Part shown: positions 6,208-34,090 of the stretch, piece after piece | How the letters are laid out: each line of letters begins with the position of its first letter | Position numbering within the stretch: position 1 is the stretch's first letter | Assembly: GCA_050258155.1 (NCBI GenBank) | Contig: JBLMYG010000057.1 | Span: forward strand, 1 to 37,370 | Direction of reading: 5' to 3' | Length of the DNA: 37,370 nucleotides | Source: Acidithiobacillales bacterium | GTDB taxonomy: Bacteria > Acidobacteriota > Thermoanaerobaculia > UBA5066 | Program-made: the position numbers and the translations under genes | Notes under the pieces: generated by a model | Database searches by the model: none | What the model was told of the DNA's origin: nothing | What the model saw: the letters and a program-made list of their open reading frames with translations, nothing else

Positions 6208-6225
6208 CGTTACGCAGGGGTGACA
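6208..6225. promoter_or_regulatory. Putative activator (UAS) site CGTTAC-N6-GTGACA; weaker second copy at 6238-6255
   Basis: cgttac gcaggg gtgaca; the motif recurs in four intergenic regions; centre 105 bp upstream of the -24 GG at 6321-6322. Confidence 0.65.
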
Positions 6226-6319
6226 AGTTCCTCCGGGCGTTACGGCTCCGCAAGGCCGGTCTGCCTTGGTCTGCCCGTCGCGTTATTCCTTCTGAAGGTT
6301 TTCCGCTCCTCGAGGCATC

Positions 6320-6335
6320 TGGCAGCGACCTTGCT
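6320..6335 (+). promoter_or_regulatory. Sigma-54 (-24/-12) promoter of the cmk-like/DUF202/HK/REC operon
   Basis: TGGCAGCGACCTTGCT: GG-N10-GC spacing with TTGCT, ending 27 bp before ATG 6363. Confidence 0.75.
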
Positions 6336-6362
6336 GCCCTCTCCGCCGGGTCTGGGGGCCGC

Positions 6363-7175
6363 ATGCCGGTTGTTCTCATCTCTCGCGGCACCATGTCGGG
6401 CGGCGAGGCGCTGGCTCACTGCCTCGCGGAGCGCCTGTCGCTGCGATATGTGCGCCGCGAGGACCTGATCGAGGTCGTCGATGCGCAGGGCGAGTACGCG
6501 AAGAAGGTCCGGGCGAGCCTCGACCGGGCCACCCGAGCCTACGACCAGTTCGGCCAGCTCCGCCGCCCCTATCTCGTCCTGATGCGACGCGCCCTGCTCG
6601 GCTTCATCCGGGAGGATAAGGTCGTCTACGCCGGCTACGCGAGCCACCTCCTCGTGCCGAATCTCCCGTGCTGCCTGAGGGTCCGGATCAACGCCCCGAT
6701 GGCCCTGAGAGTCCGGTACGCGATCAGCCGGCTCGGCCTGCCGGAGAGCGAGGCACGGGAACACATTCTTCGGGAGGACGAGCAGCGGGTCCGCTGGGGC
6801 CGCTTCATGTACGGGCACGACATCAGGGACCCCGACCTCTACGACGTCTGCTTCTTCCTCGACAGGATGTCGATCGACACGATCTGCAGCATGGTCATGG
6901 CCGGCCTCGCCGAGAAGGACTTCCAGAGAGGGCCGGAGGCCGGGAAGGCGCTGGAGGAGCTCTTCCTCTCGGCGAGCGTCGAGGCGGCGCTCGTGAGCGA
7001 CCGCCGGACGCATGCCTGGGAGATCGGAGCACGGGCCCGCGACCGAAGCGTTCTTCTCGAAGGCCCCTTCCTCGAGGAGCGCCAGCTCTCCGACGTTCTC
7101 GAGGTCGCCCGGGGCGTCAGCGGCGTCGAGGCCGTCGAGTACCAACCAGGATGCGTGTCGAGTTTCGACGGATGA
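6363..7175 (+). CDS. Cytidylate-kinase-like family protein with C-terminal BON-like domain
   Basis: MPVVLISRGTMSGGEALAHCLAERL, LRVRINAP...R, ED..R..W...YG.D..DP..YD; the C-terminal ~70 aa is BON-like. Start moved from 6054 to ATG 6363. Confidence 0.78.
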   Translation: MPVVLISRGTMSGGEALAHCLAERLSLRYVRREDLIEVVDAQGEYAKKVRASLDRATRAYDQFGQLRRPYLVLMRRALLGFIREDKVVYAGYASHLLVPNLPCCLRVRINAPMALRVRYAISRLGLPESEAREHILREDEQRVRWGRFMYGHDIRDPDLYDVCFFLDRMSIDTICSMVMAGLAEKDFQRGPEAGKALEELFLSASVEAALVSDRRTHAWEIGARARDRSVLLEGPFLEERQLSDVLEVARGVSGVEAVEYQPGCVSSFDG

Positions 7176-7206
7176 CGGAGCGCCAGCGAAGGCCGGGAGA
7201 CCACCC

Positions 7207-8094
7207 ATGCCGATGACGACAGACACCAGTGGCCACGCATTCACCGAGACGGTCGAGGAGTTTCTCTCCCGCGCTGCCGAGGCCGAGGAATCGCTCGTCC
7301 GGCTCGCAGCCGCCCGAAACGAGCTTCTCCGGGTCTCGAGCGAGACCGGCGTGAAGCTCCTCGGCTTCACGTCGAGCACGACGGGTCTCACGGAACGCCA
7401 GACATCGATGGCCCAGGAGAGGACCGCCCTGACCCGCGAGCAGACGCGCCTCTCCACCCGGAGCACCGAGCTCGCGGGCATCCGCACCGACCTCGGCCGC
7501 GAGCGGACGAGCCTCGCGGGCCAGCGGACGGACCTGGCGGTCGCGCGGACCGAGATGGCGCGCCGCCGCACCTCGCTGGCCGAGGGGCGGACGGGCCTGG
7601 CGCAGTCCCGGACGGGGCTCGCCGAAGAGCGGACGGGGCTCGCCCGGCAGCGGACGGGGATGGCGCACGAGCGGACGGCGCTCTCCTCCACGCGCACCGA
7701 CCTCGCCCGGGACCGGAACCGCCTCGCCGAAGAGCGGACCGGCTACTCCGTGCGGCGAACGGACCTCGCGGCCGAGCGGAACGTGCTCGCCACGGTCCGC
7801 ACGGACCGGGCGGCGTCGCGTACGCGGCTCTCGACTCAGAGGACCGAGATGGCCCGGGAAAGGACGTACCTCGCCCTTCTCAGGACCGGTCTCGCGCTGC
7901 TGACCTTCGGCATCGTCCTCTTCCGCTACTTCGGGGTCTCGTGGTGGAGCCTCTTCGACGCGGCGCTCGTCTTCGTCGCACTGGTCCTCCTCTCTGTGGG
8001 GGTGACGGGCTACCTCAAGAGCCACCGCAAGGTCGTGGAACTCGGGGATCGTCTCCGGTCCGACAAGGGCCTGAGCGATCTGGAGGCGGGCTGA
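7207..8094 (+). CDS. DUF202/YidH-like membrane protein with a long N-terminal heptad-repeat helix
   Basis: C-terminal MARERTYLALLRTGLALLTFG plus two TM helices is the DUF202 signature; GGGAGA RBS before ATG 7207. Confidence 0.75.
   Translation: MPMTTDTSGHAFTETVEEFLSRAAEAEESLVRLAAARNELLRVSSETGVKLLGFTSSTTGLTERQTSMAQERTALTREQTRLSTRSTELAGIRTDLGRERTSLAGQRTDLAVARTEMARRRTSLAEGRTGLAQSRTGLAEERTGLARQRTGMAHERTALSSTRTDLARDRNRLAEERTGYSVRRTDLAAERNVLATVRTDRAASRTRLSTQRTEMARERTYLALLRTGLALLTFGIVLFRYFGVSWWSLFDAALVFVALVLLSVGVTGYLKSHRKVVELGDRLRSDKGLSDLEAG
7378..7902 (+). repeat. 25 in-frame 21-bp/7-aa tandem repeats, consensus R-T-x-L-A-x-x
   Basis: TTGLTER QTSMAQE RTALTRE ... RTGLAQS RTGLAEE RTGLARQ ... RTYLALL RTGLALL with no register break; near-identical DNA units cggacggggctcgcc in the middle. 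Confidence 0.9.
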
Positions 8095-8108
8095 GCCGCG
8101 ACGACGTG

Positions 8109-9674
8109 ATGGCGAGCATCGCCTCCGCGGGCGAGATGATCCCGGCCGGGGGCGGGCCGGGTCCGGACCGTCTGGGGGCCCGGCTCGCGGGCCAGCTCCG
8201 CGACGCGCAGCACGCCCTCCTCTCCCGTCCCCGCTTCAGCATCCGGATGCGGCTCGTCACGCGGCTCGCGCTCTGCCTCGGACTCTGCTGCGCCTTCTCG
8301 ATCGCAGTCATGAGCATGCTCGGCCGGGTCCGGGACCGGCTCGGGCTGCTGGGGGCGACCGAAGAGCTGAGCGCGAGCATCCTCCGGGCGCGGGCTCTGG
8401 AGAGCGAGGGGGCCCTCACCGTGGCCCAGAGCCGCCAGGTGCTCCACGACGTGAGCGCAGCCACCGCGCTCTTCCGGCAGGCCGCCCGCACCGTCCCGGC
8501 CGCCGAAGCTCCGCGCTTCCGGACGCTTCTGGGCCGCCTCGAGACCTATCAGGGGCTCCTCGAGGCCAATCAGGCTCTGGCAGAGCGAAGCGGCCCGGGG
8601 ACGGGTCTGATCCCGTCCCGGGGAGCCATCGCCCGGGAGAAGGAGCTGGAGGTCGCCCGGCTCCTCGACGTCGTCGTCGCCGACGAGCGCGCCTCGGCGA
8701 TGCGAACGCTCGCGCTCGCCGAGTCCGCCCCTCTCCTCCTGATCGGCCTCCTCGTGGCCCTCTTCGGGGCCATCATCTACTCCACCACCCGTGCGCTCGA
8801 CGGTCCGATCCGGAGGTTCAAGGGCTACACCAGCCGGATCGCGGCCGGCGACTTCTCGCTCATCTCCCCGGCGCGAACGTACCGGGACGAGTTCACGGAC
8901 CTCGCCCTGGCCGTCAACGAGATGATGGCCGAGCTCCGGGCGCACCTCGATCGGGGCGTGAAGGCGGCCAAGCTGGCGGCGGTGGGAACCCTCACGTCCG
9001 GCATCGCCCACGAGCTGAACAACCCCCTGAACAACATCGCCATCACGACCGAGGCGCTCATGGAGGACCTGCCCCGGCTCGGCGATGACGAGAAATGGCG
9101 CCTTCTCGAGGACATCTACTTCGAGACGGAGCGGGCCGGCGAGATCGTCAAGAGCCTCCTCGACTTCACACGGCAGGAGAAGCCAGAGATGGTCCCCCTC
9201 GACCTCGTGGAGGTCATCCAGTCGACGGTCCGCCTCGCCCAGAACGAGATGGCGCTTTCCAACGTTTCCTTCACCTCCGAGCTTCCGGCCGGCCTTCCCC
9301 GCGTCCGGGGAGCGGCCAATCAGCTGCGGCAGGTCCTGCTCAACCTCCTCCTCAACGCCATCCAGGCGATGCCCGGAGGGGGCCGGCTTCACGTCAGCGC
9401 CGGGCATCGAGAGGAGGGAAGGGTCTGCGTCGAGGTGCGGGACGACGGGATCGGCATCCCGCCCGAGACGATGCCCCACATCTTCGATCCCTTCTTCACG
9501 ACCAAGGAGCCCGGCAAGGGGACGGGCCTCGGCCTCTCCGTCAGCCTCGGCATCGTCAGGAAATTCGGGGGCGACATCCAGGTGACGAGCGAGCCCCACA
9601 AGGGGACCGTGGTCCACGTTTGTCTGCCCGAGGCCGGGAGGGATAATCCCGCCCCGAGCGGCGAGGGGGAGTGA
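8109..9674 (+). CDS. Membrane sensor histidine kinase (TM-sensor-TM-HAMP-HisKA-HATPase)
   Basis: AHELNNPLNNI H-box, QVLLNLLLNA, DDGIGI, FDPFFTTK, GTGLGL. Start uncertain (8109 or 8136). Confidence 0.9.
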   Translation: MASIASAGEMIPAGGGPGPDRLGARLAGQLRDAQHALLSRPRFSIRMRLVTRLALCLGLCCAFSIAVMSMLGRVRDRLGLLGATEELSASILRARALESEGALTVAQSRQVLHDVSAATALFRQAARTVPAAEAPRFRTLLGRLETYQGLLEANQALAERSGPGTGLIPSRGAIAREKELEVARLLDVVVADERASAMRTLALAESAPLLLIGLLVALFGAIIYSTTRALDGPIRRFKGYTSRIAAGDFSLISPARTYRDEFTDLALAVNEMMAELRAHLDRGVKAAKLAAVGTLTSGIAHELNNPLNNIAITTEALMEDLPRLGDDEKWRLLEDIYFETERAGEIVKSLLDFTRQEKPEMVPLDLVEVIQSTVRLAQNEMALSNVSFTSELPAGLPRVRGAANQLRQVLLNLLLNAIQAMPGGGRLHVSAGHREEGRVCVEVRDDGIGIPPETMPHIFDPFFTTKEPGKGTGLGLSVSLGIVRKFGGDIQVTSEPHKGTVVHVCLPEAGRDNPAPSGEGE

Positions 9675-10045
9675 TGCCAGAGAGCAGGGATGTCATGGTC
9701 CTGGACGACGAGCCCATCGTCGGAGACCGCCTCCGGCCGGCTCTCGAGAAGGACGGCTTCAAGGTGGAGGTCTTCACCGACTCGACCGCCGCCCTCGAGA
9801 GGCTCAAGGAAAAGAGCTTCTCCGTGCTGGTGACGGACGTGAAGATGCGGGGGCCGAGCGGGATGGACGTCCTCCGGTTCGTCAAGGAGCACGCTCCCGA
9901 GACGCAGGTCATCGTGATCACCGGCTACGCCACCATCGAGACGAGCCACGAGGCCGACGCTCTCGGCGCCGTTCACTTCATCCCGAAGCCGTTCCGGATG
10001 AAGGACCTCGTCAAGCTGGTCTCGAAGTCGTCACGGCGGACGTAG
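9671..10045 (+). CDS. Stand-alone response regulator receiver
   Basis: LDDEPIV, TDVKM, ITGY, IPKP; overlaps the kinase stop codon. Confidence 0.92.
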   Translation: MMPESRDVMVLDDEPIVGDRLRPALEKDGFKVEVFTDSTAALERLKEKSFSVLVTDVKMRGPSGMDVLRFVKEHAPETQVIVITGYATIETSHEADALGAVHFIPKPFRMKDLVKLVSKSSRRT

Positions 10046-12007: not shown

Positions 12008-13096
12008 CTAGCCCTCCACCGGCCGGCGGACGAGGAGGGTCGTGTGGATCCGCTGCCGCTCGATGTGGGCTTTGGCGACTTTGACGAGGATCATCCCGGC
12101 ACCCCCGATGCCGGCGGCGAAAAGCATGACCGTCGAGCCTCCGTTGAGCCACCGGTCCCAGGCCGGATCGAAGGCGACCCAGCCGAGCTGCCGGAGGTAG
12201 ACGGGGACGGCGATCGCGCGGGAAATGACACAGAGAAGGATGATGAAACCCGTCGAGAGCCGGATGACCCTCTCGCTCAGGACCTTCACGCCGTAGACGC
12301 CGATGTAGACACCGACGAGGGAGCCCAGGAAGAGGAGGCAGGTCATCCTCAGGTCGACGTACCCCTCGAAGGCGTAGTTGAGCGCGCCGAACGCGCCCAT
12401 GAAGATCGCGAGGTAGAGCTCCGTTCCAGCCGCCACGGCGGTCGGGATGCCGAAGATGTAGATCATCGCCGGCACGCCGACGAATCCCCCCACGCCGATG
12501 GTCCCGGCCAGGTACCCGGTGGCGAGGCCGACCGGGAGGAGGACCCAGAGCGAGAGCTCCACGTCCGAGACCGGGAACTTGATGATCGGCTTCAGGTTGA
12601 GGCGGGCGAGGAAGTCCGTGATGGCGCGGGAGGGCCCCTGCCCCTCGGAGGCCGGCCGCAGGGCGTCACGGAGCATCGAGATCGCGACGAACGTCAGGAC
12701 GCAGATGAAGATCGCGCTGATGTACAAATCCGACCCGGCGCTCCTGGCGGTGCCGTGGCTCCCGCCCTCTGCGAACAGCAGGCTGTTGATCCAGACAGCC
12801 AGCCGGATTCCGATCAGGGCGGTGACGAGCAGGTACATGGCGAGCCGTTTGTCCACGTTCCCCATCTGGGCATGCTTCCGCGCCCCGACGAGAGCCTTGC
12901 CGAACTTGTGGGTGATGTTGCTCCCGACCGCGACGACGCCCGAGACGCCGAGGTTCATCATCCCCGGCGTCATGAAGAAGGCTCCCCCGCTGCCGATGAA
13001 GCCGGACAGAACGCCGCCGATGAAGCCGAGAAGGACGACCAGGATCGCGGTCGTCCACGTGATCGGCACGAAGACATCGCCGAAGATCGGAGGCAT
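12008..13096 (-). CDS. TSUP (TauE/SafE) family transporter
   Basis: SGFIGSGGAFFMTP and AGTIGVGGFVGVP repeats; multiple TM helices; 362 aa. Confidence 0.88.
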   Translation of the reverse strand: MPPIFGDVFVPITWTTAILVVLLGFIGGVLSGFIGSGGAFFMTPGMMNLGVSGVVAVGSNITHKFGKALVGARKHAQMGNVDKRLAMYLLVTALIGIRLAVWINSLLFAEGGSHGTARSAGSDLYISAIFICVLTFVAISMLRDALRPASEGQGPSRAITDFLARLNLKPIIKFPVSDVELSLWVLLPVGLATGYLAGTIGVGGFVGVPAMIYIFGIPTAVAAGTELYLAIFMGAFGALNYAFEGYVDLRMTCLLFLGSLVGVYIGVYGVKVLSERVIRLSTGFIILLCVISRAIAVPVYLRQLGWVAFDPAWDRWLNGGSTVMLFAAGIGGAGMILVKVAKAHIERQRIHTTLLVRRPVEG

Positions 13097-13101
13097 CTCA
13101 T

Positions 13102-14601
13102 CTACTCCAGCCGGATGAGCCTCAGGAGCGTCGAGGCGACGAGACCATACAACCCGGCGACGAGCGGCGCGATCAGGGCGACGAGAACGGGCGCCACCCA
13201 GGGCCGCGCCTTGTGGGAGGGGCCGCCGAGCAGGTCGAGGAGCGGTCCCTGATTCCGGAAGACGAGCACGTAGACGACGACCACCACGAGGAGCGCGGCC
13301 GCGACCTTGGCGATCTGGCCGGCGCCGAAGCGCAGCTTCGCGGAAAGCTCGCCGGTCCCGATGACCGGCGACCTCAGTTTGCCGGCAAGGAAGTTGGCGA
13401 GATCGCGCCCCATGCGTGTCCTGGCCGCGGCCGGCTTGTCGAGGAAGACATCGCCGAGGACCACGAGGCTGTAGCTGATGTCGGGATGCACGGCTGCGAG
13501 AAGCCGGTCGGGGCCTCCGGCGACGGTCTGGCCGCCGCCGGAGCGTCCGTCGTGGACGAGCCGCTCCAGCGTCTCGCGGAAGGCGCGCTCGGCCGGTGAG
13601 ACCTTCTCGACGACGTCCTCCTCCACACCGCCGTCGGCGGGCGTCACGCGAAGCCCGGTGGCCGGCCGGGCGAGGGGCGCCTCGCCGCCCCCCTCAGGGC
13701 GGTAGCGGATCAGCTCTACGGCCGCTCCCCACCGTCGGGCCAGCTCGTTGATCTGGGTCAGCGTCCCGGAGTCGGGGCGAAATTCCTCCTGGATCCAGAG
13801 GATGTTCGTGCTGGCGACCGTGCAACGGACCTCCCGACAGCCGGGCAGTCCCTCGAGAACCCCGGGGATCAGCGGCGCGAGGGAAGCCTGCCGGGGCATG
13901 TACGTGATCGTCACCACACCCTCGCTCGACCGCACCGTCAGATCGGCCTCGGCCGTCCGCTCGTCGAGGGCGAGCCGGATCCGGGCGCGGGCCTGGAGCA
14001 GAAGCTCCTCCATCGCCCGTCGGCTCGCCGGCGTCGGCTTGAAGTCCGGGAGGTCGACGATGCCGCAGAGCGCGGTGGCTGCGTTCTCGAGGCTCACATT
14101 CTCGAGGTTGACGACGAAGTCGTATTTCCTGAGGTCGTCCATGTCGGCGCCGTGGACGAAGTGGACCCAGGCCCGGATGTCGTCGTCGATCTCGGAGAGA
14201 AAGACCTCCGCCTTCTCCCGCGAGAGCTTCGTCCGCGAAACGACCGCGTCGAGGCGCTGACCGTGCTCCGGGATCACCCGGACGCGGAGGACGTGCGACA
14301 CGCCCGGAAGAAGGAAATGGCCGGCCCGCCCGTAGTAGACGAGATCCCCCTGGGCCGCCTTCTCGCAGATCGTGTCCGTGGCCACCGCGAGGTACCGCTG
14401 CTTGAGCCGGGCGAGTCGCTCCCGCACCGCCGGCTTCTTGACCATCGCCACCTCGAGCTTGCCGACGGGGATGCCGCATTCGTTGGCCTTCGCCACGACG
14501 TCCTCGCGGCTCAGGTAGGCGTAGCCGAGCTTCGCGGCGAGGCTCTGGGCCAGCCGCTCTCCCCCCCCGAATGGGACGCTACAGATGAAGACGATCGGCA
14601 T
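13102..14601 (-). CDS. Cytidylate-kinase-like + BON-like protein with extra domain and two C-terminal TM helices
   Basis: MPIVFICSVPFGGGERLAQSLAAKLGY, VYYGRAGHFLL, LRVRVI, YDFVVN; hydrophobic C-terminus. Confidence 0.75.
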   Translation of the reverse strand: MPIVFICSVPFGGGERLAQSLAAKLGYAYLSREDVVAKANECGIPVGKLEVAMVKKPAVRERLARLKQRYLAVATDTICEKAAQGDLVYYGRAGHFLLPGVSHVLRVRVIPEHGQRLDAVVSRTKLSREKAEVFLSEIDDDIRAWVHFVHGADMDDLRKYDFVVNLENVSLENAATALCGIVDLPDFKPTPASRRAMEELLLQARARIRLALDERTAEADLTVRSSEGVVTITYMPRQASLAPLIPGVLEGLPGCREVRCTVASTNILWIQEEFRPDSGTLTQINELARRWGAAVELIRYRPEGGGEAPLARPATGLRVTPADGGVEEDVVEKVSPAERAFRETLERLVHDGRSGGGQTVAGGPDRLLAAVHPDISYSLVVLGDVFLDKPAAARTRMGRDLANFLAGKLRSPVIGTGELSAKLRFGAGQIAKVAAALLVVVVVYVLVFRNQGPLLDLLGGPSHKARPWVAPVLVALIAPLVAGLYGLVASTLLRLIRLE

Positions 14602-14664: not shown

Positions 14665-15060
14665 TCACACGGGTGCGACGACCAGCTCGTCGAGGGTGCG
14701 GAGAAGCACCACGGGATCGATGGGCTTGTCGAGGAAAGCCTCGGCTTTGAAGCGCTTGGCCCGGTCGAGGAAGGCGTGATAGTCGGACGTCAGCTTCTCC
14801 TGAATCCCGCTGACAATGACGACCGGGAGGCCCGCGAGGGCGGGATCCTTCCGGATGGCGACGAGGGCGGTGAGACCCCCCCGCTCCGGCATCATCAGGT
14901 CGAGAAGCACGGCGTCCGGCCGCTCCTCGGCCAAGAGCCTGAGCGCCTGATCGACCCCGTTAGCGGCGCGGACCCTCCAGCCGTGGTCCGCGAGCAGCGT
15001 GCCGAGGTAGGCGGTGACGTCGGGCTCGTCGTCGATGACAACTACACTTCGCTCTTTCAT
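14665..15060 (-). CDS. Stand-alone receiver (DivK-like clade)
   Basis: IDDEPDV, LDLMMP, PVVIVSG, DKPIDP; start ATG 15060 with GGAGG RBS. Confidence 0.92.
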   Translation of the reverse strand: MKERSVVVIDDEPDVTAYLGTLLADHGWRVRAANGVDQALRLLAEERPDAVLLDLMMPERGGLTALVAIRKDPALAGLPVVIVSGIQEKLTSDYHAFLDRAKRFKAEAFLDKPIDPVVLLRTLDELVVAPV

Positions 15061-15102
15061 GTTGCCTCCGGCAGACCCTTCAGCGGCGCCCAATGCGTGA
15101 AG

Positions 15103-15117
15103 GCAAAGGCGATGCCG
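15103..15117 (-). promoter_or_regulatory. Sigma-54 promoter of the REC/cmk-like/TSUP/REC/HK operon
   Basis: Minus strand CGGCATCGCCTTTGC: GG-N10-GC. Confidence 0.7.
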
Positions 15118-15209
15118 CCCCGATCCTCGGCTCGCCATTCATGGCCCGGCAGAATTTAGGGTTCTCGCCGAGTCCGCGCGCCACCTGTATGCCACCGGGG
15201 ACGTCCGTC

Positions 15210-15227
15210 CGTTACGTTCTGGTGACG
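15210..15227. promoter_or_regulatory. Putative UAS CGTTAC-N6-GTGACG
   Basis: cgttac gttctg gtgacg; centre 103 bp upstream of the -24 GG (15115-15116). Confidence 0.68.
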
Positions 15228-15289: not shown

Positions 15290-15697
15290 CTACGCTGTCA
15301 CCGGCAGGCCGCCACAGACGTAGGCCAGGACGGCAAGTAGTGCCTTCGGGTCTATGGGCTTGCCAAGTACGGCGTCGGGACCGCTGACGCCGCGGAGCGA
15401 CATCAGGTAGGACTGGCAGTCGTGCTCGAGGATCTGATCCATGCCCGTGACGACCACGAGCGGGATGTTCCGGTAGCGCGGGTCGCTGCGCAGCGTGACG
15501 ACAAGATCCAGCCCCGACCTTCCCGGCATCAGGACGTCGACGAGGATCGCGTCGGGCCGAAAGCCGTCGAGGGCCCGCAAGGCCTGAGCAGCGTCGGAAG
15601 CGGATCGGGTCCAGTAGTCCTGGTCCTCGAGGAGAGAGGAGACATAGGCCACCGTATCGGGATCGTCGTCAACGATGAGAACGCACCTTGCGGCCAT
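15290..15697 (-). CDS. Stand-alone receiver (DivK-like clade)
   Basis: VDDDPDT, VDVLMPGRSG, PLVVVTG, GKPIDP; start ATG 15697 (GAGGAG RBS). Confidence 0.9.
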   Translation of the reverse strand: MAARCVLIVDDDPDTVAYVSSLLEDQDYWTRSASDAAQALRALDGFRPDAILVDVLMPGRSGLDLVVTLRSDPRYRNIPLVVVTGMDQILEHDCQSYLMSLRGVSGPDAVLGKPIDPKALLAVLAYVCGGLPVTA

Positions 15698-15707
15698 CGC
15701 CGTCTCC

Positions 15708-26061: not shown

Positions 26062-27314
26062 CACGCCCTCCTTCCCGCCACGAACGCCCGGGCGGCGGCC
26101 GCGGTGGCGTCCCGCGTCGACGCGGCGACGTCCTCGGGCCTTCGGGCCACCCCGGCCACCGAGAGGCTTGCCTCGGGGCTGTCGAGGCAGAAGCCGTCCT
26201 CGTCCTTCCGGATGGGGAAGGGGAACCCGTCAGCGGCGAGGGCGGGAACCATACCGGTCGCGAGGACGACGAGGTCGGCCGGCGCCGAGACGAGACGCCC
26301 GGCCGCCACGTCTTCCAGCCGAAGACGGAGGCCCTTGCCGTCGTCTCTCTCCACCTTGCCGACCTTCCCCTTGATCAGCTTCACCCGGCTCGTCGCGGCG
26401 ACCTTCGTGAGCATCTCCTCGTTGCGTCCCGGTGTGCGGCGGTCGATGTAGTAGATGCTCACCTCCGTCTCGGGGAGCTGCTCGTGCACGTAAAGGGCCT
26501 GCTTCAGCGAGGCGAGGCAGCAGACGGACGAGCAGTACGGCAGGTGCTTCACGTCGCGCGACCCGGCGCACTGGACGAACGCCACCTGCCGCGGCGGCTG
26601 CCCGTCGGACGGCCGGAGGATCTTCCCGCCGGTGGGACCGGAGGGGGCCGCGAGCCGCTCCATCTGGACGTTGGAGATCACGTCGGGGTAGACCCCGCCC
26701 CCCAGCTCGGGAAGCTTCTCCAGCGGATAGGGATTCCACCCGGTCGCGATCACGACGGCGCCGACGTCGATCGTCTCCTCCCGCTGCTTCGCGGAAAGGT
26801 CGATGGCCTTGACCGTGCAGGCATCCACGCACGCCGTGCAGCCTTCGGGACAGGCCGTTCGGTCGAGAGCGAAGCGGCGGGGCCAGGCGTTCGGAAAGGA
26901 GAGGCGCACCGCCGGCACCTGGGACATCCCGAGGTTGAACGGATCGGAGATGCGGGCCGGGCAGACCTTGCTGCAGTCGCCGCAGGCGGTGCAGAGGTCG
27001 CTGACGTAGTCCGGGCCGCGGGTCAGCGTGACATGCCAGCCGCCGTCGGAGGCCGAGGCCTTCGTCACCCCGCAGTTCGTCAGGACCCTGACGCGGGGGC
27101 TCCGCTCGAGCCGCCGGATGTTGATCTCCATGCCGCAGGACGGGGGGCAGAGCTTGGGAAAGTAGTGGTGGTTCCGGAGAACCCGGCCCCCCACGGCCGG
27201 CTCCCGCTCCACCAGCACCACGTCCCGCCCCGCCTCCGACGCCTCGAGCGCGGCGGTGATGCCGGCGATTCCGGCCCCGACGACGAGGATCGGCTTCGGG
27301 CGCTGGGCGGTCAT
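26061..27314 (-). CDS. qmoA: QmoA (HdrA-like flavoprotein)
   Basis: VVGAGIAG, YFPKLCPPSCG, NVQMERLA, QCAGSRD..HLPYCS.VCCLASLKQ. Confidence 0.96.
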   Translation of the reverse strand: MTAQRPKPILVVGAGIAGITAALEASEAGRDVVLVEREPAVGGRVLRNHHYFPKLCPPSCGMEINIRRLERSPRVRVLTNCGVTKASASDGGWHVTLTRGPDYVSDLCTACGDCSKVCPARISDPFNLGMSQVPAVRLSFPNAWPRRFALDRTACPEGCTACVDACTVKAIDLSAKQREETIDVGAVVIATGWNPYPLEKLPELGGGVYPDVISNVQMERLAAPSGPTGGKILRPSDGQPPRQVAFVQCAGSRDVKHLPYCSSVCCLASLKQALYVHEQLPETEVSIYYIDRRTPGRNEEMLTKVAATSRVKLIKGKVGKVERDDGKGLRLRLEDVAAGRLVSAPADLVVLATGMVPALAADGFPFPIRKDEDGFCLDSPEASLSVAGVARRPEDVAASTRDATAAAARAFVAGRRA

Positions 27315-28099
27315 TGCCGCCTCCCCTCCCGGACGGCCAGCGTCGGCTCGCCGAAAAGGGCGAACTTGAGCCAGCGGAAGGAGAACCGGAGCAGCGCAAG
27401 GTCGTCGTTCTTCAGCCGCTCCACGAGCTCCGGCGCCACGAGGAAGCGGTCGAGGAAGCTCGATTCGAAGACGAGGCGGCGGAAGGTGTCGAGGTCGTAG
27501 CAGCCGATGAAGAACATCTCCATCCGCTTCGGATCGAGCTGCCGCCCGCCGATGAACCAGGGGTGCGAGACGATCTCCCGGAACCCCGCCTCGATCTCCT
27601 CCTGCTCGTCCACCTTCTGGTCGCTCCGCCAGGCAGGCGCCGTCCAGAGCCGGGGCTCCTCGCGGCCGAGACAGAAGTCATCCTCGAAGAGGAAGGAGAC
27701 GGGATCCGGATCGACCCCTGCCCGGGCCGGCGGGAGCGCCATGCCGACCGGGTACATCCGGCAGGCCCAGGGGCGGTCCTCGTAGACGGTGCAGCCGTTC
27801 TCCCCGACGAAGGGGCAGCGCTTCCCCTCCCCTTCGTCCATCCGGAGGATCACCACGGGAAGGCGAAGCTCCTTCGTGATCGGCGTGAGGGTGTGCCGGT
27901 CGAGGAACTCCCGCGTCGTCAGGCCCCTCCGGCGCGCCAGCCTGAGGACATCGACCGGGGTCAGCAGAATGTTCACGTCGGCGCAGCACCGGTTGAAGCA
28001 GGCCACGCCCGGGTGGCACGCGAAACGAAACGGCTCGTCGTTTCCGAGCTGGCGCTGCCGCCTCACCGCCTCGCCCACCGAACACGCCTCTGTGCTCAT
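27311..28099 (-). CDS. YkgJ/UPF0153 (CxxCxxCC-type) cysteine-cluster protein
   Basis: FACHPGVACFNRCC...CPF....CTVYEDRPWACRMYP; 4-bp overlaps with both neighbours. Confidence 0.85.
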   Translation of the reverse strand: MSTEACSVGEAVRRQRQLGNDEPFRFACHPGVACFNRCCADVNILLTPVDVLRLARRRGLTTREFLDRHTLTPITKELRLPVVILRMDEGEGKRCPFVGENGCTVYEDRPWACRMYPVGMALPPARAGVDPDPVSFLFEDDFCLGREEPRLWTAPAWRSDQKVDEQEEIEAGFREIVSHPWFIGGRQLDPKRMEMFFIGCYDLDTFRRLVFESSFLDRFLVAPELVERLKNDDLALLRFSFRWLKFALFGEPTLAVREGRRQ

Positions 28100-28449
28100 G
28101 GTTCGTTCCCTTTCTTTCCGCCGGAATCGGGGGTCACGTCGCGGTCGTCGGAGTCGTCGTCTTCGCCGACAGCGACGTCAGCCTCGAGGATCCGGTCGCG
28201 GATCGCCGTCGGCGACCAGACCGGCAGGGGGGACGTCGTTCCCGTGGCGGGGTCGAGGCGGTGGCGGTAGGAGGACCTCACGCCGTAGTGCTCTTCCATC
28301 CAGGCCCAGCCGCGTACGTAGTAGGGGCAGTCATCGCTGAAGCAGGCGAGCTGGAACGGGGTGTCCCATCCGCTCTGCTCGGGCAGCGAAAACGGGACCA
28401 TGGTCACGCCGCAGTGGGGGCAGACGGGTGTGGACGGTCTGGCCGGCAC
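28096..28449 (-). CDS. Small Cys-rich (Zn-ribbon-like) protein of unknown function
   Basis: CPHC...CFSDDCPYY..GW..M; start placed at GTG 28449 (GAGG RBS), downstream of the aprA hairpin. Confidence 0.75.
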   Translation of the reverse strand: MPARPSTPVCPHCGVTMVPFSLPEQSGWDTPFQLACFSDDCPYYVRGWAWMEEHYGVRSSYRHRLDPATGTTSPLPVWSPTAIRDRILEADVAVGEDDDSDDRDVTPDSGGKKGNEP

Positions 28450-28462
28450 ATCAACCTCGCTC

Positions 28463-28502
28463 GAAAGAAGCCGCCCCGGGCGCCGCGAGGCGCCCGGGGC
28501 GG
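28463..28502 (-). terminator. Intrinsic terminator/stabilising hairpin after aprA
   Basis: Perfect 14-bp stem ccgccccgggcgcc/ggcgcccggggcgg (28471-28502) with a 4-nt loop, followed on the minus strand by CTTCTTTC. Confidence 0.75.
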
Positions 28503-28516
28503 TCCAAAGCGGGAAC

Positions 28517-30424
28517 TCAGGCGCTGACGAGCACACCCTCGCCGGCCTTTACGAACGAATGAATGATGGGTCGCTTGGTCATCTCCCACTCGCCCGTCGT
28601 GCTGTTGAGACGGCAGTTCACGAACACGTGCCAGTTCTTCTCGTCCATCCGGGGCTTGTCGGAACGGAAGTAGTAGCCGGGCCAGCGGGTCTCCTCGCGG
28701 AAGAGGATCGACCGGACGTGGGCCTCGGCCTGGTGCATGCGGTGAATGTTCTCCCAGCAGCGCATCAGCTCGTGGAGGTCGGAAGCGCCCAGCTTCGCCG
28801 AGTCCTCCTTGAGGAACGCGAGCAGCTCCAGACCCTTCTTGAGCAGCGCCTCGGAGGTGGTGAACTGCGAGGTCACCCCACCCGCGTACTCGTCCATCAG
28901 CTTCTGAAGGCGCATCTGGAACATCTTGGGCCGGATGTAGTTGGGGTTGACGTCCGTCTGCGTCGTGGCACCCTTGAACTCCTCGAAGGTCTTCAGCGGC
29001 TTCAGGACTTCCGCCTTCAGCCGCTCGACCTCGGTCGGGTCCACCTTGGGCGCCGCGACCTTCTCCTTGACGATGAACCGGACAGCCGCCTTGGCAGCGA
29101 TCCGCCCTTCCGCGTGCGAGCCGGAAGAGAACTTGTGCGAGGAAGCGCCCGAGGCGTCGCCGGCGCAGAAGAGGCCGCGCACGGTGGACATGTTCTCGTA
29201 GCCCCAGAAGTACTCCTTGGGGGCGAGATCCTCGGGGCCCGACACCCAGGCACCGGAGGCGCCGGAGTGCGAGCCGATGAAGTACGGCTCGGCCGCCGCG
29301 ATTTCAGACGCCTTCTCCTCGGGCGACACGTTCGACGCCGCCCAGAGGATGGCCTGGGAGATCGTCATGTCGAGGAAGTCTTCCCACGCCTCGGACTCCA
29401 GCTCCTTGAGCTTCTTCTTGGCGGCCTTCTCGTCCCCCGCGGCCGCGGCGATCTTCTGGATCGCCTCCTCGGTCCGCATGAAGATGGGGCCCTTGCCCTC
29501 CATGACGTCCAGCAGCATGAGGTAGTTGCGGAGGTTGGCCGGGACCGGCTTGACGTGGCCGTACGGCTTCCAGTTGTCGAGCTCGGCCTTGCGGGTCTCC
29601 ATGTAGTTCTCGCCGAGGGCGTTGGTCGCCCGAGACTTGAAGAGGAGGAACCACGCGCCGACGGGGCCGTAGGCGTCCTTGAACCGGACCGGAATGAAAC
29701 GAACCTCCTGGCAGGTCATCTCGGCCCCTGCCTTGAGGGTGAAATACGCGGAGGCGCCGGCGTTCCAGGGCGGGTACCAGGCACGGCCCTGACCTTCGCC
29801 GGAGGACCTCGGCTTGAAGACGTGGACGGCGCCGCCCATGGCCGCGATGACGGCCTTCGCCTTGAAGACGTAGAAGGTGTTCTCGCGCACGGAGAACCCG
29901 TATGCGCCGACACACCGCCCGTCCTCGAGGATGGGGCCGACGATGAAGACGCGCTCGTAGATGTTCTCCTTGCCGATCGCGTTCTTGGCGGCCTCGGCCA
30001 CGACGACCTTGTAGGACTCGCCGTTGATCATCAGCTGCCAGCGGCCTTCGTGGACGTAGGCGCCCTTCTCGTCCTTCCAGATGGGGAGGCCCCACTTCTC
30101 GAAAAGGTGGACTGTGGAGTCGACGTGACGGGCGATGTTGGCCACGAGGTCCTCACGGGTGATCCCCATGAGGTCGTTCCGGACGTAGTCGACGTAGTCC
30201 TTGATGGTGTTCTCGCCGTCCTTCAGGCCCACGTACTGGTTGATCGCGGAGAGGCCCATCGCGACGGCGCCGGAGCGGTCCACGGCGGCCTTGTCGACGA
30301 GCGTCACCTTGAGCCCGTGCTTCTTGGCCCAGTAGGCGGCCTCGACCGCGGCGCCGCAGGCGGCCATTCCGCCGCCGAGGATGAGGAGGTCGGTATCGAC
30401 CTGAACGGTTTTGAAGTCAGCCAT
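28517..30424 (-). CDS. aprA: Adenylylsulfate reductase alpha subunit
   Basis: GGGMAACG, RSGAVAMGLSAIN, WQLMINGESYK, RFKDAYGPVGAWFL, HKFSSGSHAEGR, REETRWPGYY; start ATG 30424. Confidence 0.99.
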   Translation of the reverse strand: MADFKTVQVDTDLLILGGGMAACGAAVEAAYWAKKHGLKVTLVDKAAVDRSGAVAMGLSAINQYVGLKDGENTIKDYVDYVRNDLMGITREDLVANIARHVDSTVHLFEKWGLPIWKDEKGAYVHEGRWQLMINGESYKVVVAEAAKNAIGKENIYERVFIVGPILEDGRCVGAYGFSVRENTFYVFKAKAVIAAMGGAVHVFKPRSSGEGQGRAWYPPWNAGASAYFTLKAGAEMTCQEVRFIPVRFKDAYGPVGAWFLLFKSRATNALGENYMETRKAELDNWKPYGHVKPVPANLRNYLMLLDVMEGKGPIFMRTEEAIQKIAAAAGDEKAAKKKLKELESEAWEDFLDMTISQAILWAASNVSPEEKASEIAAAEPYFIGSHSGASGAWVSGPEDLAPKEYFWGYENMSTVRGLFCAGDASGASSHKFSSGSHAEGRIAAKAAVRFIVKEKVAAPKVDPTEVERLKAEVLKPLKTFEEFKGATTQTDVNPNYIRPKMFQMRLQKLMDEYAGGVTSQFTTSEALLKKGLELLAFLKEDSAKLGASDLHELMRCWENIHRMHQAEAHVRSILFREETRWPGYYFRSDKPRMDEKNWHVFVNCRLNSTTGEWEMTKRPIIHSFVKAGEGVLVSA

Positions 30425-30434
30425 GTCCGCCTCC

Positions 30435-30872
30435 TCAGGCTTTCGTCCACACGGCGGGCAGGCCGAGGGAAGTCGGTTCGGTGTAGAGGACCGGCCCCTC
30501 GAGCGGCGGCGTACCGTTGAAGCCGCCATCGGGTTTCGCCTGGCCCTCGGGTGTGGTGCGAATCGGGAACTTGAAGCGTTTGATCGTGCCGTTCCGGAAC
30601 TTCACCGTCCACATGATGTTGTCGGTGGAGCGCATCGGCACCACCGACGCGCCCATCGGGACGAAGTCCGCGTAGCCGCGCACGTCGACCGCCTGGGTGG
30701 GGCAGATCTTGACGCAGTTGTAGCACTCCCAGCACATCTCGGGTTCCTGGTTGTAGGCCTTCATTGTGTCCTTGTTGAGGACCATGAGGTCGTTGGGGCA
30801 GATGTACTGGCAGGCGGTCTTGTCAAGCGCCTTGCACCCGTCACATTTTTCCGGGTTCACAAAACTGGGCAT
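30435..30872 (-). CDS. aprB: Adenylylsulfate reductase beta subunit
   Basis: MPSFVNPEKCDGCK..TACQYICP, CWECYNCVKICP, VRGYADF, KRFKFPIRTTPEG. Confidence 0.99.
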   Translation of the reverse strand: MPSFVNPEKCDGCKALDKTACQYICPNDLMVLNKDTMKAYNQEPEMCWECYNCVKICPTQAVDVRGYADFVPMGASVVPMRSTDNIMWTVKFRNGTIKRFKFPIRTTPEGQAKPDGGFNGTPPLEGPVLYTEPTSLGLPAVWTKA

Positions 30873-31019: not shown

Positions 31020-31034
31020 GCAATTCATGTGCCA
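31020..31034 (-). promoter_or_regulatory. Sigma-54 promoter of aprBA(-qmo-sat)
   Basis: Minus strand TGGCACATGAATTGC, a consensus TGGCAC-N5-TTGC, ~150 bp upstream of aprB. Confidence 0.82.
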
Positions 31035-31182
31035 CGAGCGGTGAAGCGGCCAACGTGCTGCAACGGAGAGAGAAGAGCTCTCCGGTCCTAAGCGGGCGCG
31101 CCACCGGACCGAAACAGACCTGTCCGCCGGGCCTCCCCGATCAATTGCGGACCACGGAGCCCTTAGACCGGGCGACGGGCAC

Positions 31183-31217
31183 CGTTACCCATCGGAAACC
31201 GTTACACCCTCGTGACC
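31183..31217. promoter_or_regulatory. Tandem putative UAS sites between divergent aprB and dsrM
   Basis: cgttac ccatcg gaaacc (31183-31200) and cgttac accctc gtgacc (31200-31217). Confidence 0.65.
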
Positions 31218-31357: not shown

Positions 31358-31373
31358 TGGCACGAAGATCTCA
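31358..31373 (+). promoter_or_regulatory. Possible degenerate sigma-54 promoter of dsrMK
   Basis: TGGCACGAAGATCTCA: perfect -24 element, but the -12 element reads TCTC instead of TTGC. Confidence 0.35.
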
Positions 31374-31423
31374 TGACATCCCCCGGAACAGGGCGCGCGT
31401 TCGCCCGGCGAGGAGGGTTCGAG

Positions 31424-32329
31424 ATGGGATGGGTCCAGATTCTGGGCGTTCTCGCTCTTGTCGCCTTCGCGGCAGGATGCCTGTACAAGGCCATTCACTA
31501 CGCCCGAATGCCGCTCCACCTTCGATGGGAGCTCTACCCCGTGGCCCACGAGAAGCAGAAGGCGTCCTACGGTGGCTCGTACTTCGAGGAGCTGGACTGG
31601 TGGACCAAGCCGCGGGAGGTATCGAAGCTGGGCGAGGTGAGAACGATCGCCGAGGAGGTCCTGACCCTCAAGCAGGTCAGGGAGCGCAACCCCGGCCTCT
31701 GGCTCCCCTCTCTCCTCTTCCACTACGGCCTCTATCTGTTGTTCGCTCTGGGGGGGGCGCTCCTGCTCGGCGTAATCCCGGGCGTGCGCGACCTGCCCCT
31801 CCTCTGGCGCCTCGGTGGAGGGCGCGCGCTGGCCCTCTGGTGTGCAATTGGCCTCGCGCTTGGCACCCTCGGAGGTCTCGGCCTCCTCGCACGACGAACG
31901 CTGAACCCGAGCCTGCGCCGGGCTTCGACGCCGGCGGACTTCCTGCACCTCGTCCTGCTCCTCGCGGTCTTTCTGGCGTCGTGGGGGAGCCTCCTGACGG
32001 CGGACCCGCATCTCGAGGTGGCCGCCGCCTTTGTCCGGGGGCTCGTCTCCTTCAGCTCCGTCACTGCCATTCCCGGCTGGTTCGGCGCGCAGGTTCTGCT
32101 TCTCGGCCTCTTCCTCGCCTACCTGCCGTGGAGCCACATGACGCACTTCTTCTCCAAGTACTTCACGTGGCACTCCGTCCGCTGGGACGACGCCCCGAAC
32201 CTCGGAGGAAAGTACGACGAGAGAGTGCAGAAGCTTCTGACGCTGCCGATCTCCTGGTCGGCACCGCACATCAGGGGAGACGGCAAGAAGACGTGGGCCG
32301 ATGTCGCTGTCGAAAAGGGGGATTCCTGA
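31424..32329 (+). CDS. dsrM: DsrM-family membrane cytochrome b (NarI-like)
   Basis: P.HLRWELYPVAHE..YGGSYFEE.DWW, LFHYGLY, YLPWSHMTHFF; start ATG 31424 with AGGAGG RBS. Confidence 0.85.
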   Translation: MGWVQILGVLALVAFAAGCLYKAIHYARMPLHLRWELYPVAHEKQKASYGGSYFEELDWWTKPREVSKLGEVRTIAEEVLTLKQVRERNPGLWLPSLLFHYGLYLLFALGGALLLGVIPGVRDLPLLWRLGGGRALALWCAIGLALGTLGGLGLLARRTLNPSLRRASTPADFLHLVLLLAVFLASWGSLLTADPHLEVAAAFVRGLVSFSSVTAIPGWFGAQVLLLGLFLAYLPWSHMTHFFSKYFTWHSVRWDDAPNLGGKYDERVQKLLTLPISWSAPHIRGDGKKTWADVAVEKGDS

Positions 32330-32330
32330 C

Positions 32331-33944
32331 ATGGACACCGTCCCCTCCATCCCCGACGTCCGGGACATCGCACGGAATGCCGACACGCTGTCGCCGATCG
32401 ATCTTGCACGGCTCCTTCCGCTGCCGCCCCCTTACGACCGGGACGACCCCGCTCTCCTCTGGAAGGAGGTGCCTCCAGAAAAGCGCAAGCAGATCGACGC
32501 TTCGCTGGACGGCGTCTCCGCCCTCGCTCTCAAGCGGCCGGCCGACCCGGCCGAGGAGAAGCGGCTTCTTACGGGGCTGAAGAGAGGCCTCGGGAAGCTC
32601 ATCTCCCGTGAGGACAACTGGGGATTCCTCCAGCAGCTCACGCTCACGCTGGACCACTGCACCCACTGCCAGACCTGCGCTGGGGCCTGCCCGATCTACG
32701 AGACGAGCGGCCAGAACGAGGTCTACCGGCCGAGCTACCGGGCCGACGTCTTGCGCGGGCTCCTCGCCCGCTACGGCCCAAATGGCAACGCGCTCAAGGC
32801 CGCTCTCGTCGGCGCTCCGGAGCTGAACTGGAACACCTTCGCGCGCCTCGCGGAGCTGGCCTACCGATGCACCCTCTGCCGCCGCTGCTGTCAGGCCTGC
32901 CCGATCGGCGTCGACAACGGCCTCATCACGCACGAGCTGCGAAAGCTCTTCAGCCAGGAGCTCGGAATCTCCGCCCGGGAGGCTCACGCCGACGGCTCGG
33001 TCCTGCAGCTGAGGGTCGGCTCCTCCACCGGCATGACGCCCGAGGTCGTCAAGGACAACATCCAGTTCATCGACGAGGAGACGAGCGAGAAGGTCGGATT
33101 CAAGGTCGAGACCCCCTGGGACGTGGAAGGCGCCGACGTTCTCCTGATGCACAACGCGGGCGAGATCATGGCCTGGCCCGAGAACCCCGGCGCCTTCGCC
33201 GTCATCATGCAGAAGGCAGGGATCTCGTGGACGCTCTCCTCCGAGATGGTCGCGTACGACGCGATCAATTACGGACTCTGGTACGACGACGTCCAGTTCG
33301 CCCGCGTCGCGCTGAAGCACGCCGAGCTGGCAAAGAAGCTCAAGGTCAAGAAGATCGTCATCGGTGAGTGCGGCCACGCGCACAAGGCCCTCGCGGTGGT
33401 CGCCGACCGGATCCTCGGCGCCGACCTGGCCGTGCCGCGGGAGAGCTATGCCCCGTTCCTCGCCTCGATCGTCGACTCGGGCGTGCTCAGGTTCGACCCG
33501 TCCCGCAACGACTTCCCTGTCACCCTGCACGACCCCTGCAACATCGCACGCGCCATGGGCATCATCGAGCCGCCGCGCCGCGTCCTGCGCAGGATCGCCC
33601 CCCGCTTCCGCGAAATGGAGCCGCACGGCGTGGACAACTACTGCTGCGGCGGCGGATCGGGCTTCGCCATCATGTCGGGCAACAACTTCGCCAACTGGCG
33701 GATGCTCGTCTCCGGCCGGATCAAGATGAAGCAGGTCCTCGACGCCTTTGCCGGCGAGCTCGATCCGTCCATTCCCAAGTACGTCTGCACGCCCTGCTCC
33801 AACTGCAAGGGGCAGTTCCGCGACCTGATCCGGGCCTACGACGCCTTCGAGAGGAGCAAGATCCTTTACGGCGGCCTCGTGGAGCTGATCGTCAACGCGA
33901 TGGCCGACGTCAAGCCCGGCTTCATCGAGTGGGAGTTTCACTAG
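32331..33944 (+). CDS. dsrK: DsrK-family Fe-S/CCG protein
   Basis: CTHCQTCAGACP, CTLCRRCCQACPIG.D, GECGHA, VTLHDPCN, NYCCGGGSG, PCSNCKGQ; lies between dsrM and dsrA. Confidence 0.88.
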   Translation: MDTVPSIPDVRDIARNADTLSPIDLARLLPLPPPYDRDDPALLWKEVPPEKRKQIDASLDGVSALALKRPADPAEEKRLLTGLKRGLGKLISREDNWGFLQQLTLTLDHCTHCQTCAGACPIYETSGQNEVYRPSYRADVLRGLLARYGPNGNALKAALVGAPELNWNTFARLAELAYRCTLCRRCCQACPIGVDNGLITHELRKLFSQELGISAREAHADGSVLQLRVGSSTGMTPEVVKDNIQFIDEETSEKVGFKVETPWDVEGADVLLMHNAGEIMAWPENPGAFAVIMQKAGISWTLSSEMVAYDAINYGLWYDDVQFARVALKHAELAKKLKVKKIVIGECGHAHKALAVVADRILGADLAVPRESYAPFLASIVDSGVLRFDPSRNDFPVTLHDPCNIARAMGIIEPPRRVLRRIAPRFREMEPHGVDNYCCGGGSGFAIMSGNNFANWRMLVSGRIKMKQVLDAFAGELDPSIPKYVCTPCSNCKGQFRDLIRAYDAFERSKILYGGLVELIVNAMADVKPGFIEWEFH

Positions 33945-33953
33945 AGGGCCTGC

Positions 33954-33971
33954 CGTTACGGCTCCGTGACG
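33954..33971. promoter_or_regulatory. Putative UAS CGTTAC-N6-GTGACG (distal)
   Basis: cgttac ggctcc gtgacg; its first 13 bp are identical to the site at 6238. Confidence 0.62.
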
Positions 33972-34072
33972 CCCGGAAGCAGGCGGAACGTGTCGCTCGT
34001 CGCCGCCTCATCTCCGCGCGGCCCCCGGCCGAGCCGACCCCGAGCCGGGATGGGAGAGCCCTTCCCCGGCCT

Positions 34073-34090
34073 CGTTACGGAGCGGTTACG
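34073..34090. promoter_or_regulatory. Putative UAS CGTTAC-N6-GTTACG (proximal)
   Basis: cgttac ggagcg gttacg; centre 104 bp upstream of the -24 GG (34185-34186). Confidence 0.62.

Follow-up and report, generated by a model that had tools for sequence, protein, structure and literature searches.

A conserved palindrome upstream of sigma-54 promoters as the probable activator site of sulfate-respiration genes in Acidobacteriota

The 37,370-nucleotide stretch of DNA analysed here (the window, which is the entire contig C57 of the assembly of an uncultured acidobacterium deposited as Acidithiobacillales bacterium, referred to as G000) carries genes for dissimilatory sulfate reduction and two accessory operons, and a palindrome of 16 bases, GTTAC-N6-GTAAC or a close variant of it, is found upstream of sigma-54 (-24/-12) promoters in front of these genes. 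Very probably, a single activator protein binds to this palindrome and thereby switches the sulfate-respiration genes on together via the sigma-54 promoters. The initial annotation of the window had already suggested that the repeats are enhancer-like sites of a sigma-54 activator, and this reading now appears likely and well supported by comparative genomics, as the sites, the promoters and the spacing between them are conserved across relatives. We also hold with good confidence the overall model, in which the palindrome would be the upstream activating sequence of one sigma-54 activator, four transcription units would be co-induced, and a receiver-type activator would be the most likely binder.

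The form CGTTAC-N6-GTGAC was confirmed at all four positions reported for it (6208, 15210, 31200 and 33954, all on the plus strand), with 0 copies expected by chance from 100 dinucleotide-preserving shuffles of the window. The genome-wide scan that had been recommended returned the same four exact copies only, in 3,467,012 bases on 473 contigs (69% G+C, 87.5% complete). Three variants had been listed in addition, at 6238, 31183 and 34073. When one mismatch was allowed, 34073 alone was added in the window, whereas 6238 and 31183 turned out to be CGTTAC half-sites with a degenerate second arm. A search of G000 for GTTAC-N6-GTAAC with at most one mismatch gave 11 sites, six of them inside the 37-kb window, and none of the five others has a sigma-54 promoter at the right distance. 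Every site in the window is intergenic, and each of the four intergenic regions involved holds a -24/-12 element, as had been described. Elsewhere in the genome (contig C287, 9850-9891), two GTTAC half-sites 26 bp apart precede a gene for a protein that begins with MSELRHDPLNRRW; a sigma-54 promoter was not observed there.

The four promoters all have GG and GC at the 10-base spacing of the TGGCAC-N5-TTGC form, and three of the four are conserved in relatives. The distances given below are counted between the leading G of the palindrome and the leading G of the GG. For accessory operon 1, which begins with a cytidylate-kinase-like gene, the site GTTAC-N6-GTGAC (6209-6224) lies 112 bp upstream of the GG of the plus-strand promoter TGGCAG-N5-TTGCT (6320-6335; GG 6321-22, GC 6333-34), which precedes the ATG at 6363, and a second, degenerate site (6239-6254), consisting of a GTTAC half-site and the arm GCAAG, follows 30 bp downstream of the first. 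For accessory operon 2, the site at 15211-15226, which reads GTCAC-N6-GTAAC on the minus strand, is 110 bp upstream of the GG of the minus-strand promoter CGGCAT-N5-TTGC (15103-15117; GG 15116-15, GC 15104-03). The dsrA gene has the plus-strand promoter CGGCAC-N5-TTGCT (34184-34199; GG 34185-86, GC 34197-98) with a proximal site, GTTAC-N6-GTTAC (34074-34089), 111 bp upstream of its GG, and a distal site (33955-33970) at 230 bp. In the divergent aprB/dsrM2 intergenic region, a pair of sites, GTTAC-N6-GAAAC and GTTAC-N6-GTGAC (31184-31216), lies upstream of the minus-strand aprB promoter GTGGCAC-N5-TTGC (31020-31035; GG 31033-32), with distances of 183 and 166 bp. Enhancers of this class are dyad sites placed roughly 80-200 bp before the -24 box, and the arrangement in the window corresponds to this: three promoters have their site at 110-112 bp and aprB has its pair at 183/166 bp, with the distal dsrA site at 230 bp as an extra. 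The centre-to-GG figures of 105, 103 and 104 bp that had been given earlier could be reproduced (6216 to 6321 is 105, 34081 to 34185 is 104, and 15210 gives 102-103), the promoter paired with 15210 being on the minus strand. Among 179 sigma-54-like promoter matches in the genome, only three have a palindrome (two mismatches or fewer) 106-116 bp upstream, and all three are in the window, so that the proposed check for promoter enrichment found phased pairs nowhere else. An rpoN gene is present in G000 (PF04552 match on contig C124, 17202-17675, E 1.3e-65).

Conservation was examined first among close relatives. Of 40 genomes screened for dsrA, only G005 (same genus as G000, DsrA identity 93%) and G012 (same family, 88%; 96% complete) have it, and the gene order of their dsr loci is syntenic with that of the window. 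Phylogenetic footprinting upstream of dsrA and aprB, which the initial annotation had recommended, was extended to the cytidylate-kinase-like gene: in the three-genome alignments (G000, G005 and G012), the palindromes and the -24/-12 boxes stand out as conserved islands in otherwise diverged upstream regions, and so do the ribosome-binding sites. The site at 6209 is conserved in G005, where the promoter following it is identical, and the CGTTACGG half-site of the degenerate site is kept at the equivalent G005 position. The aprB promoter is conserved in G005 and G012, and the site pair upstream of it in G005, G012 and L025, one of the loci considered next.

In a wider set of 80 DsrA loci from other genomes, returned by a scan with DsrA, the palindrome, searched as GTNAC-N6-GTNAC, is found within 600 bp upstream of dsrA in 22. 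The promoter GGCAY-N5-TKGC is present in all 22 of these, 109-115 bp downstream of the palindrome in 21; in the 22nd (L032), a one-mismatch site occupies the expected place at 109-115 bp. The counterpart of the proximal dsrA site is thus kept in 21 of 22 palindrome-bearing regions, and several other loci also have a distal site, at 214-230 bp. Among the remaining 58 loci, three of which had less than 40 bp of upstream sequence, the promoter was matched in two. A pool of 1.52 Mb of sequence, made up of the 80 loci together with the window and the G005 stretches, contains 65 palindrome-promoter pairs less than 400 bp apart; 31 of these have a spacing of 110-112 bp, with minor groups at 183-185 bp (aprB) and 214-230 bp (distal dsrA sites). 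The 30 unique phased sites give the consensus Y-GTTAC-G-N5-GTAAC-R, in which the GT and AC of each arm were fixed by the selection of the sites and the informative columns are the T (28/30), the A (27/30), the G (22/30) and the Y (27/30). The arms and the promoter spacing are kept across genomes whose DsrA proteins are 70-93% identical; the sequence between site and promoter has diverged across clades, and only its length is kept, which argues for functional constraint and not for a transferred block.

The canonical palindrome Y-GTTAC-N6-GTAAC-R is nearly confined to Acidobacteriota among the 80 DsrA loci. With the phyla split by record label (three loci being unlabelled, and Sulfomarinibacteraceae having been checked to belong to Acidobacteriota), 40 acidobacterial loci (750 kb) contain 66 palindromes and 27 phased pairs, and the 37 loci from other phyla (581 kb), whose DsrA identity is similar, contain two palindromes and one phased pair. 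This single phased exception, L073, is labelled Chondromyces, yet a fragment of an acidobacterial-type activator is present in it.

The initial annotation stated that the activator is not encoded in the window, and this was borne out by the Pfam gene map and by the listing of sigma-54 activators that it had called for, as none of the 21 PF00158 matches in G000 is on C57. Judging from gene content and gene order in relatives, the binder is most likely the activator that closes their dsr island. This protein consists of a receiver domain, a sigma-54 AAA+ domain and a Fis-type helix-turn-helix (HTH_8). AtoC/NtrC models align with residues 6-456 of its 458, and in NCBIfam no activator candidate reaches an equivalog cut-off, the receiver-type protein being placed only at the generic AtoC/NtrC level. 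Orthologues with 72-100% identity were found in all seven motif-bearing genomes searched (G005, G012, G041, G042, G043, G044 and G046). Of the 40 relatives, just three (G001, G005 and G012) have an orthologue, the best remaining matches reaching 46-47% identity, and 36 of the 37 relatives without dsrA yielded none. In all six genomes in which dsrA and this gene share a contig, the two have the same orientation and the activator gene follows 17.4-18.7 kb downstream (distances calculated from match coordinates), a gene for a Cache/HAMP histidine kinase lies directly 5' of it in five of five loci, and the recognition-helix stretch (V/I)SRKTLWEK is invariant in five of five orthologues. In G005, a PF12974 periplasmic binding-protein gene precedes the kinase and activator genes, and the best solved (PDB) relatives of its product are PtxB, ArrX and AioX. 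The G005 dsr island runs on one strand through dsrABDL, dsrN, dsrC, dsrT, dsrMK..P, an oxidoreductase gene and a siroheme synthase gene to this three-gene module; the stretch from dsrL to the module showed no sigma-54-like promoter, and the 690-710 kb region of G005 and the G000 contigs C363 and C62 gave none either. The G000 island is distributed over three contigs, C57, C363 and C62. Of these, C62 has the siroheme-synthase-like gene and the binding-protein gene, the second of which is cut by the contig end, and therefore the kinase and activator genes are most likely unassembled rather than absent. Two G005 activators were also used to look for an orthologue in G000 and gave none, the best G000 matches being 41-51% identical. 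A degenerate DNA pattern for the helix-turn-helix signature GIHxSTLxxK, applied to five related genomes, matched only a different receiver-type activator in G041 and G042, and this protein was dropped, as it has no orthologue in G000, G005 or G012.

Several observations weigh against a single receiver-type activator acting on all of these sites. The phasing at about 104 bp that had been ascribed to the whole regulon holds at three promoters, but the aprB sites, at 183 and 166 bp, depart from it; the aprB spacing is likewise 183-185 bp in G005, L025 and L026, and it is 155 bp in L027 and G012. No site in G000 has the consensus GTAAC in both arms, the second arm being GTGAC or GTTAC. Conservation of the 15210 site and its promoter was not found in the G005 and G012 alignments. 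The activator and kinase genes are missing from an assembly that is 87.5% complete, so that for G000 the link to the activator comes from relatives, and G001 (75% complete) has the receiver-type activator but no dsrA match. The relatives are moreover mutually dependent, and counts of orthologues and loci therefore overstate the support. Finally, in 10 more distant loci (L053, L055, L067, L070, L071, L073, where it is partial, L076, L079, L085 and L087), the gene that ends just before a single palindrome encodes a different activator, with PAS, Sigma54_activat and HTH_8 domains, which argues for this Cys-PAS protein as the binder in those genomes.

Such a neighbourhood is what would be expected if the palindrome were the site of a one-component, OrpR-like redox activator and the pathway were switched by cellular redox instead of a periplasmic oxyanion sensor. 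In the seven loci in which the stop codon of the Cys-PAS gene is available, it is 17-75 bp from the palindrome, which is itself 110-112 bp before the sigma-54 promoter, and the motif CC[ED]-x6-C-x3-C of the Cys-PAS protein has the C52/E54/C61/C65 spacing described for the [4Fe-4S] PAS domain of OrpR (PMC8359166). OrpR (DVU2106) of Desulfovibrio vulgaris Hildenborough is described in the same paper as a sigma-54 activator of the one-component type; it has a PAS domain with a Cys triad and binds GGGCGYRTTTTGCGCCC, a sequence different from the palindrome (PMC8359166). It controls only the orp operons; the Cys spacing is what it has in common with the dsrA-adjacent activator of the distant loci. 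An OrpR-type PAS domain (C-x8-C-x3-C with an acidic residue at +2) was found only in activators of other genomes and not in G000, where a full-length tblastn search, a search with the C-terminal 75 residues and a six-frame regular expression for the helix-turn-helix found no Cys-PAS orthologue (at 87.5% completeness). Nor was an orthologue found in G012, which is 96% complete and motif-bearing. In G005 there is a homologue with 50% identity, but it and the dsrA-adjacent gene are not reciprocal best matches and its helix-turn-helix differs; this protein, encoded at 555 kb, had been considered as a general binder and was dropped for lack of a reciprocal best match and its absence from G012. Furthermore, the genomes with a Cys-PAS gene also encode the receiver-type activator. 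A redox-switched Cys-PAS binder is thus improbable as the general explanation, though it retains some weight, and a receiver-type, AioR-like activator is favoured over it on the present comparison of genomes. In L106 (G041, contig C4, about 3.077 Mb, a long-read metagenome-assembled genome), the N-terminal PAS part of a Cys-PAS homologue is out of frame, which could be a frameshift or a consensus error.

The window itself encodes regulators of another kind, namely two Rrf2 genes downstream of sat (20144-20632 and 20845-21423, both on the minus strand), and the motif could be their operator, through which they would act on the same promoters as repressors or modulators. Rrf2 proteins are known to recognise inverted repeats, and the motif is restricted to this locus within the genome. 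However, in the two relatives compared, sites and regulator genes do not consistently go together, as palindromes are present in the G012 locus where no Rrf2 gene lies beside sat, and G005 has only one. In addition, sites 110-230 bp upstream at a fixed distance have the geometry of enhancers and not that of operators overlapping a promoter, which makes an Rrf2 operator quite unlikely. That the repeats are chance matches or remnants of mobile or repeat elements without a regulatory role, as might be thought from the four exact copies being all on the plus strand and from the 13 bases CGTTACGGCTCCG common to 6238 and 33954, has next to no probability, with 0 copies expected by chance, flanks that are unlike each other, and only the arms and the promoter spacing conserved across genomes.

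If the palindrome is the site of one sigma-54 activator, dimers of it on the palindrome would contact sigma-54 RNA polymerase, held closed at the -24/-12 elements 110-112 bp downstream (183 bp at aprB), and ATP hydrolysis by the activator would open the promoters. The four units dsrABD(L...), aprBA-qmoABC-sat and the two accessory operons (cytidylate-kinase-like, TauE, kinase and receiver genes) would then be induced together. The most likely candidate, the receiver-type activator, would be part of an AioXSR-like oxyanion-sensing module together with a PtxB/AioX/ArrX-family binding protein and a Cache/HAMP histidine kinase. In the AioXSR system, AioR acts at aioBA sigma-54 promoters (in Agrobacterium, Rhizobium NT-26 and Herminiimonas), and this receiver-type activator is combined with a histidine kinase and a PtxB-like binding protein. 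The module of the dsr island has the same composition; G005 has all three genes and G000 retains the binding-protein gene only. AioR is described as a receiver-type sigma-54 activator with the 16-bp consensus GTT-N10-AAC, and the MEME motif published for it accommodates GTTAC-N6-GTAAC (PMC5335332); of the 30 unique phased sites, 28 have T at base 3 and 27 have A at base 14 of this consensus. The phylum differs, and the targets here are dsr, apr, qmo and sat and not arsenite oxidase. More tentatively, and as a possibility that we would not yet expect to hold in full, the whole dissimilatory sulfate/sulfite-reduction pathway of Acidobacteriota may be one sigma-54 regulon with the AioXSR-like sensor at the 3' end of the dsr island as its master switch: a sulfur oxyanion (sulfite, sulfate or thiosulfate) would be the ligand of the PtxB/AioX-family protein, the Cache/HAMP kinase would relay the signal to the activator, and the activator would dock about 111 bp, or about ten and a half helical turns, from the promoters. 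If the module is indeed co-transcribed with dsr, the switch would also be self-amplifying. Such a system would be without known precedent in Dsr-based respiration, both as a substrate sensor and as a master regulator.

The initial annotation did not recognise the motif among described regulons, and this has to be corrected in view of AioR and of CbrB, an NtrC-family activator of Pseudomonas. Rex/CRP-type boxes, GTGA..TCAC, have the opposite half-site order. The subsites of CbrB are reported as TGTTAC in forward and GTAACA in reverse orientation upstream of sigma-54 promoters, often with an integration host factor (IHF) site in between (PMC6296734). These hexamers are the same as the arms of the palindrome, but CbrB subsites have a wider and looser spacing, the arms here being exactly 6 bp apart at a nearly fixed promoter distance, and its regulon is unrelated. 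A spacing of N14 separates the CbrB subsites. Since both the AioR consensus and the CbrB subsites fit, the type of motif and the three-component design are already known, and the new part is the regulon, with dsr, apr and sat under the motif, and not the kind of motif. In Deltaproteobacteria, sat and apr are controlled by Rex and HcpR. The main text of the sigma-54 regulome paper on Desulfovibrio vulgaris does not name dsr, apr or sat, although its supplementary regulon tables could hold sites (PMC4641369), a 2025 survey of sigma-54 regulons makes no mention of dsr or Acidobacteria, and a term search of two papers on acidobacterial dsr genomes (PMC6018796, PMC10591310) found neither "sigma" nor "promoter". 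Literature searches, in which supplements were excluded, returned no paper linking sigma-54 to dsr, apr or sat.

According to these two papers, uncultured Acidobacteriota hold a large share of the environmental dsrAB sequences in peat and marine sediments (PMC6018796, PMC10591310). The present analysis offers a first concrete model of how the pathway could be controlled in dsr-bearing members of this phylum, and the conserved site, its fixed spacing, two activator candidates and a candidate periplasmic sensor make the question of control experimentally tractable. Uncultured dsr-bearing Acidobacteriota also encode oxygen respiration, and to our knowledge nothing is known about how they decide on respiring sulfate or sulfite. 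The motif further serves as a practical marker of regulon members, pointing to both accessory operons of the window, to dsrT and a YeiH-like transporter in other genomes, and to an anion-porin operon in G005. For instance, the unit of site and promoter also precedes, in other genomes, a gene for a YeiH-like (PF03601) membrane protein, itself located before dsrA, and a DsrT-like (RsbRD_N) gene. In G005 (L020, 10313-10440; contig C1, about 615.3 kb), the palindrome CGTTACGGTGGCGTTAC lies 111 bp before CGGCAC-N5-TTGC, followed by genes for a porin O/P-like protein, an FAD oxidoreductase and an AMP-dependent ligase.

Soil metatranscriptome contigs from four runs of two studies match sat, aprBA and dsrAB, some without any difference, so that these sequences are present in RNA libraries. 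In each of the four runs, the summed depth of RNA contigs drops from high to low after the bin that ends at 31019; this fits the aprB promoter but was not counted as support. As these contigs do not show transcription starts, they neither support nor contradict the promoters.

The genes of the window were assigned by Pfam. Accessory operon 1 (6363-10045, plus strand) encodes a cytidylate-kinase-like protein, a DUF202 protein, a HAMP histidine kinase and a receiver-only regulator, and accessory operon 2 (15060 down to 12008, minus strand) a receiver protein, a second cytidylate-kinase-like protein and a TauE-family permease. The sulfate-reduction genes are flanked by two PEP-utilizer/PPDK-like genes, two cytidylate-kinase-like genes, two TauE permease genes and a DUF202 gene (1724-6115, minus; 6363-8094, plus; 12008-14601, minus), some of which share the enhancer. 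The receiver gene of accessory operon 2 likely starts at ATG 15060, since GGAGG precedes this codon and the product then begins MKERSVVVIDDE, which is typical for receivers; the longest reading frame (14665-15138, minus strand) is over-extended by 26 codons and would engulf its own sigma-54 promoter. The aprB, aprA, two small, qmoA, qmoB, qmoC and sat genes occupy 21392-30872 on the minus strand. On the plus strand, dsrM2 (about 31418-32329, a Nitrate_red_gam match) and dsrK2 (32301-33944) are followed by dsrA, dsrB, dsrD and the 5' part of dsrL (34317-37370), identified by Pfam and by tblastn to G005, with dsrL cut by the contig end.

After the Rrf2 pair, the minus strand continues to about 15290 with genes for a macro-domain protein, an unknown protein, a DsrK-like Fe-S/receiver fusion, a PAS kinase and a receiver. 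Compared with G005, the window has an extra block here (about 15290-20632), between an Rrf2 gene and the receiver gene of accessory operon 2, which contains these five genes and the second Rrf2 gene; in G005 and G012 the receiver gene directly follows its upstream gene. The 15210 site and its promoter exist only with this extra-block arrangement. The fusion protein (17152-18915, minus strand) is DsrK/HdrD-like, with two 4Fe-4S motifs and a CCG domain joined to a C-terminal response-regulator receiver domain, and its location beside a PAS histidine kinase and a receiver-only protein suggests that it may be a redox enzyme under phosphorelay control.

Further elements were seen near the promoters. 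A plus-strand, sigma-54-like sequence, TGGCAC-N5-TCTCA (31358-31373), lies about 45 bp before the start of dsrM2; it has the -24 box and a non-canonical -12 element with T for the G of the GC, and its function is uncertain. Alignments show it kept in G005 and L025 in the form TGGCAY-N5-TCTCA, its distance to the palindromes differing in L025. In L053, L055, L067, L070, L071, L073 and L079, a second conserved block, roughly GAAGTGGAA-N4-GGTGAA-N4-TTGTGA, is found between the palindrome and the dsrA promoter. It contains TCAA/TGAA-N4-TTG, resembles an IHF site, lies about 40-85 bp upstream of the -24 box and is not evident in the clade of the window. Moreover, in five loci (L053:9809, L055:17889, L067:17864, L071:14180 and L076:17889) the dsrA promoter is followed after about 8 kb by a second promoter, TGGCAC-N5-TTGC, which lacks a GTTAC palindrome at 111 bp and could be a target of the other activator of these islands.

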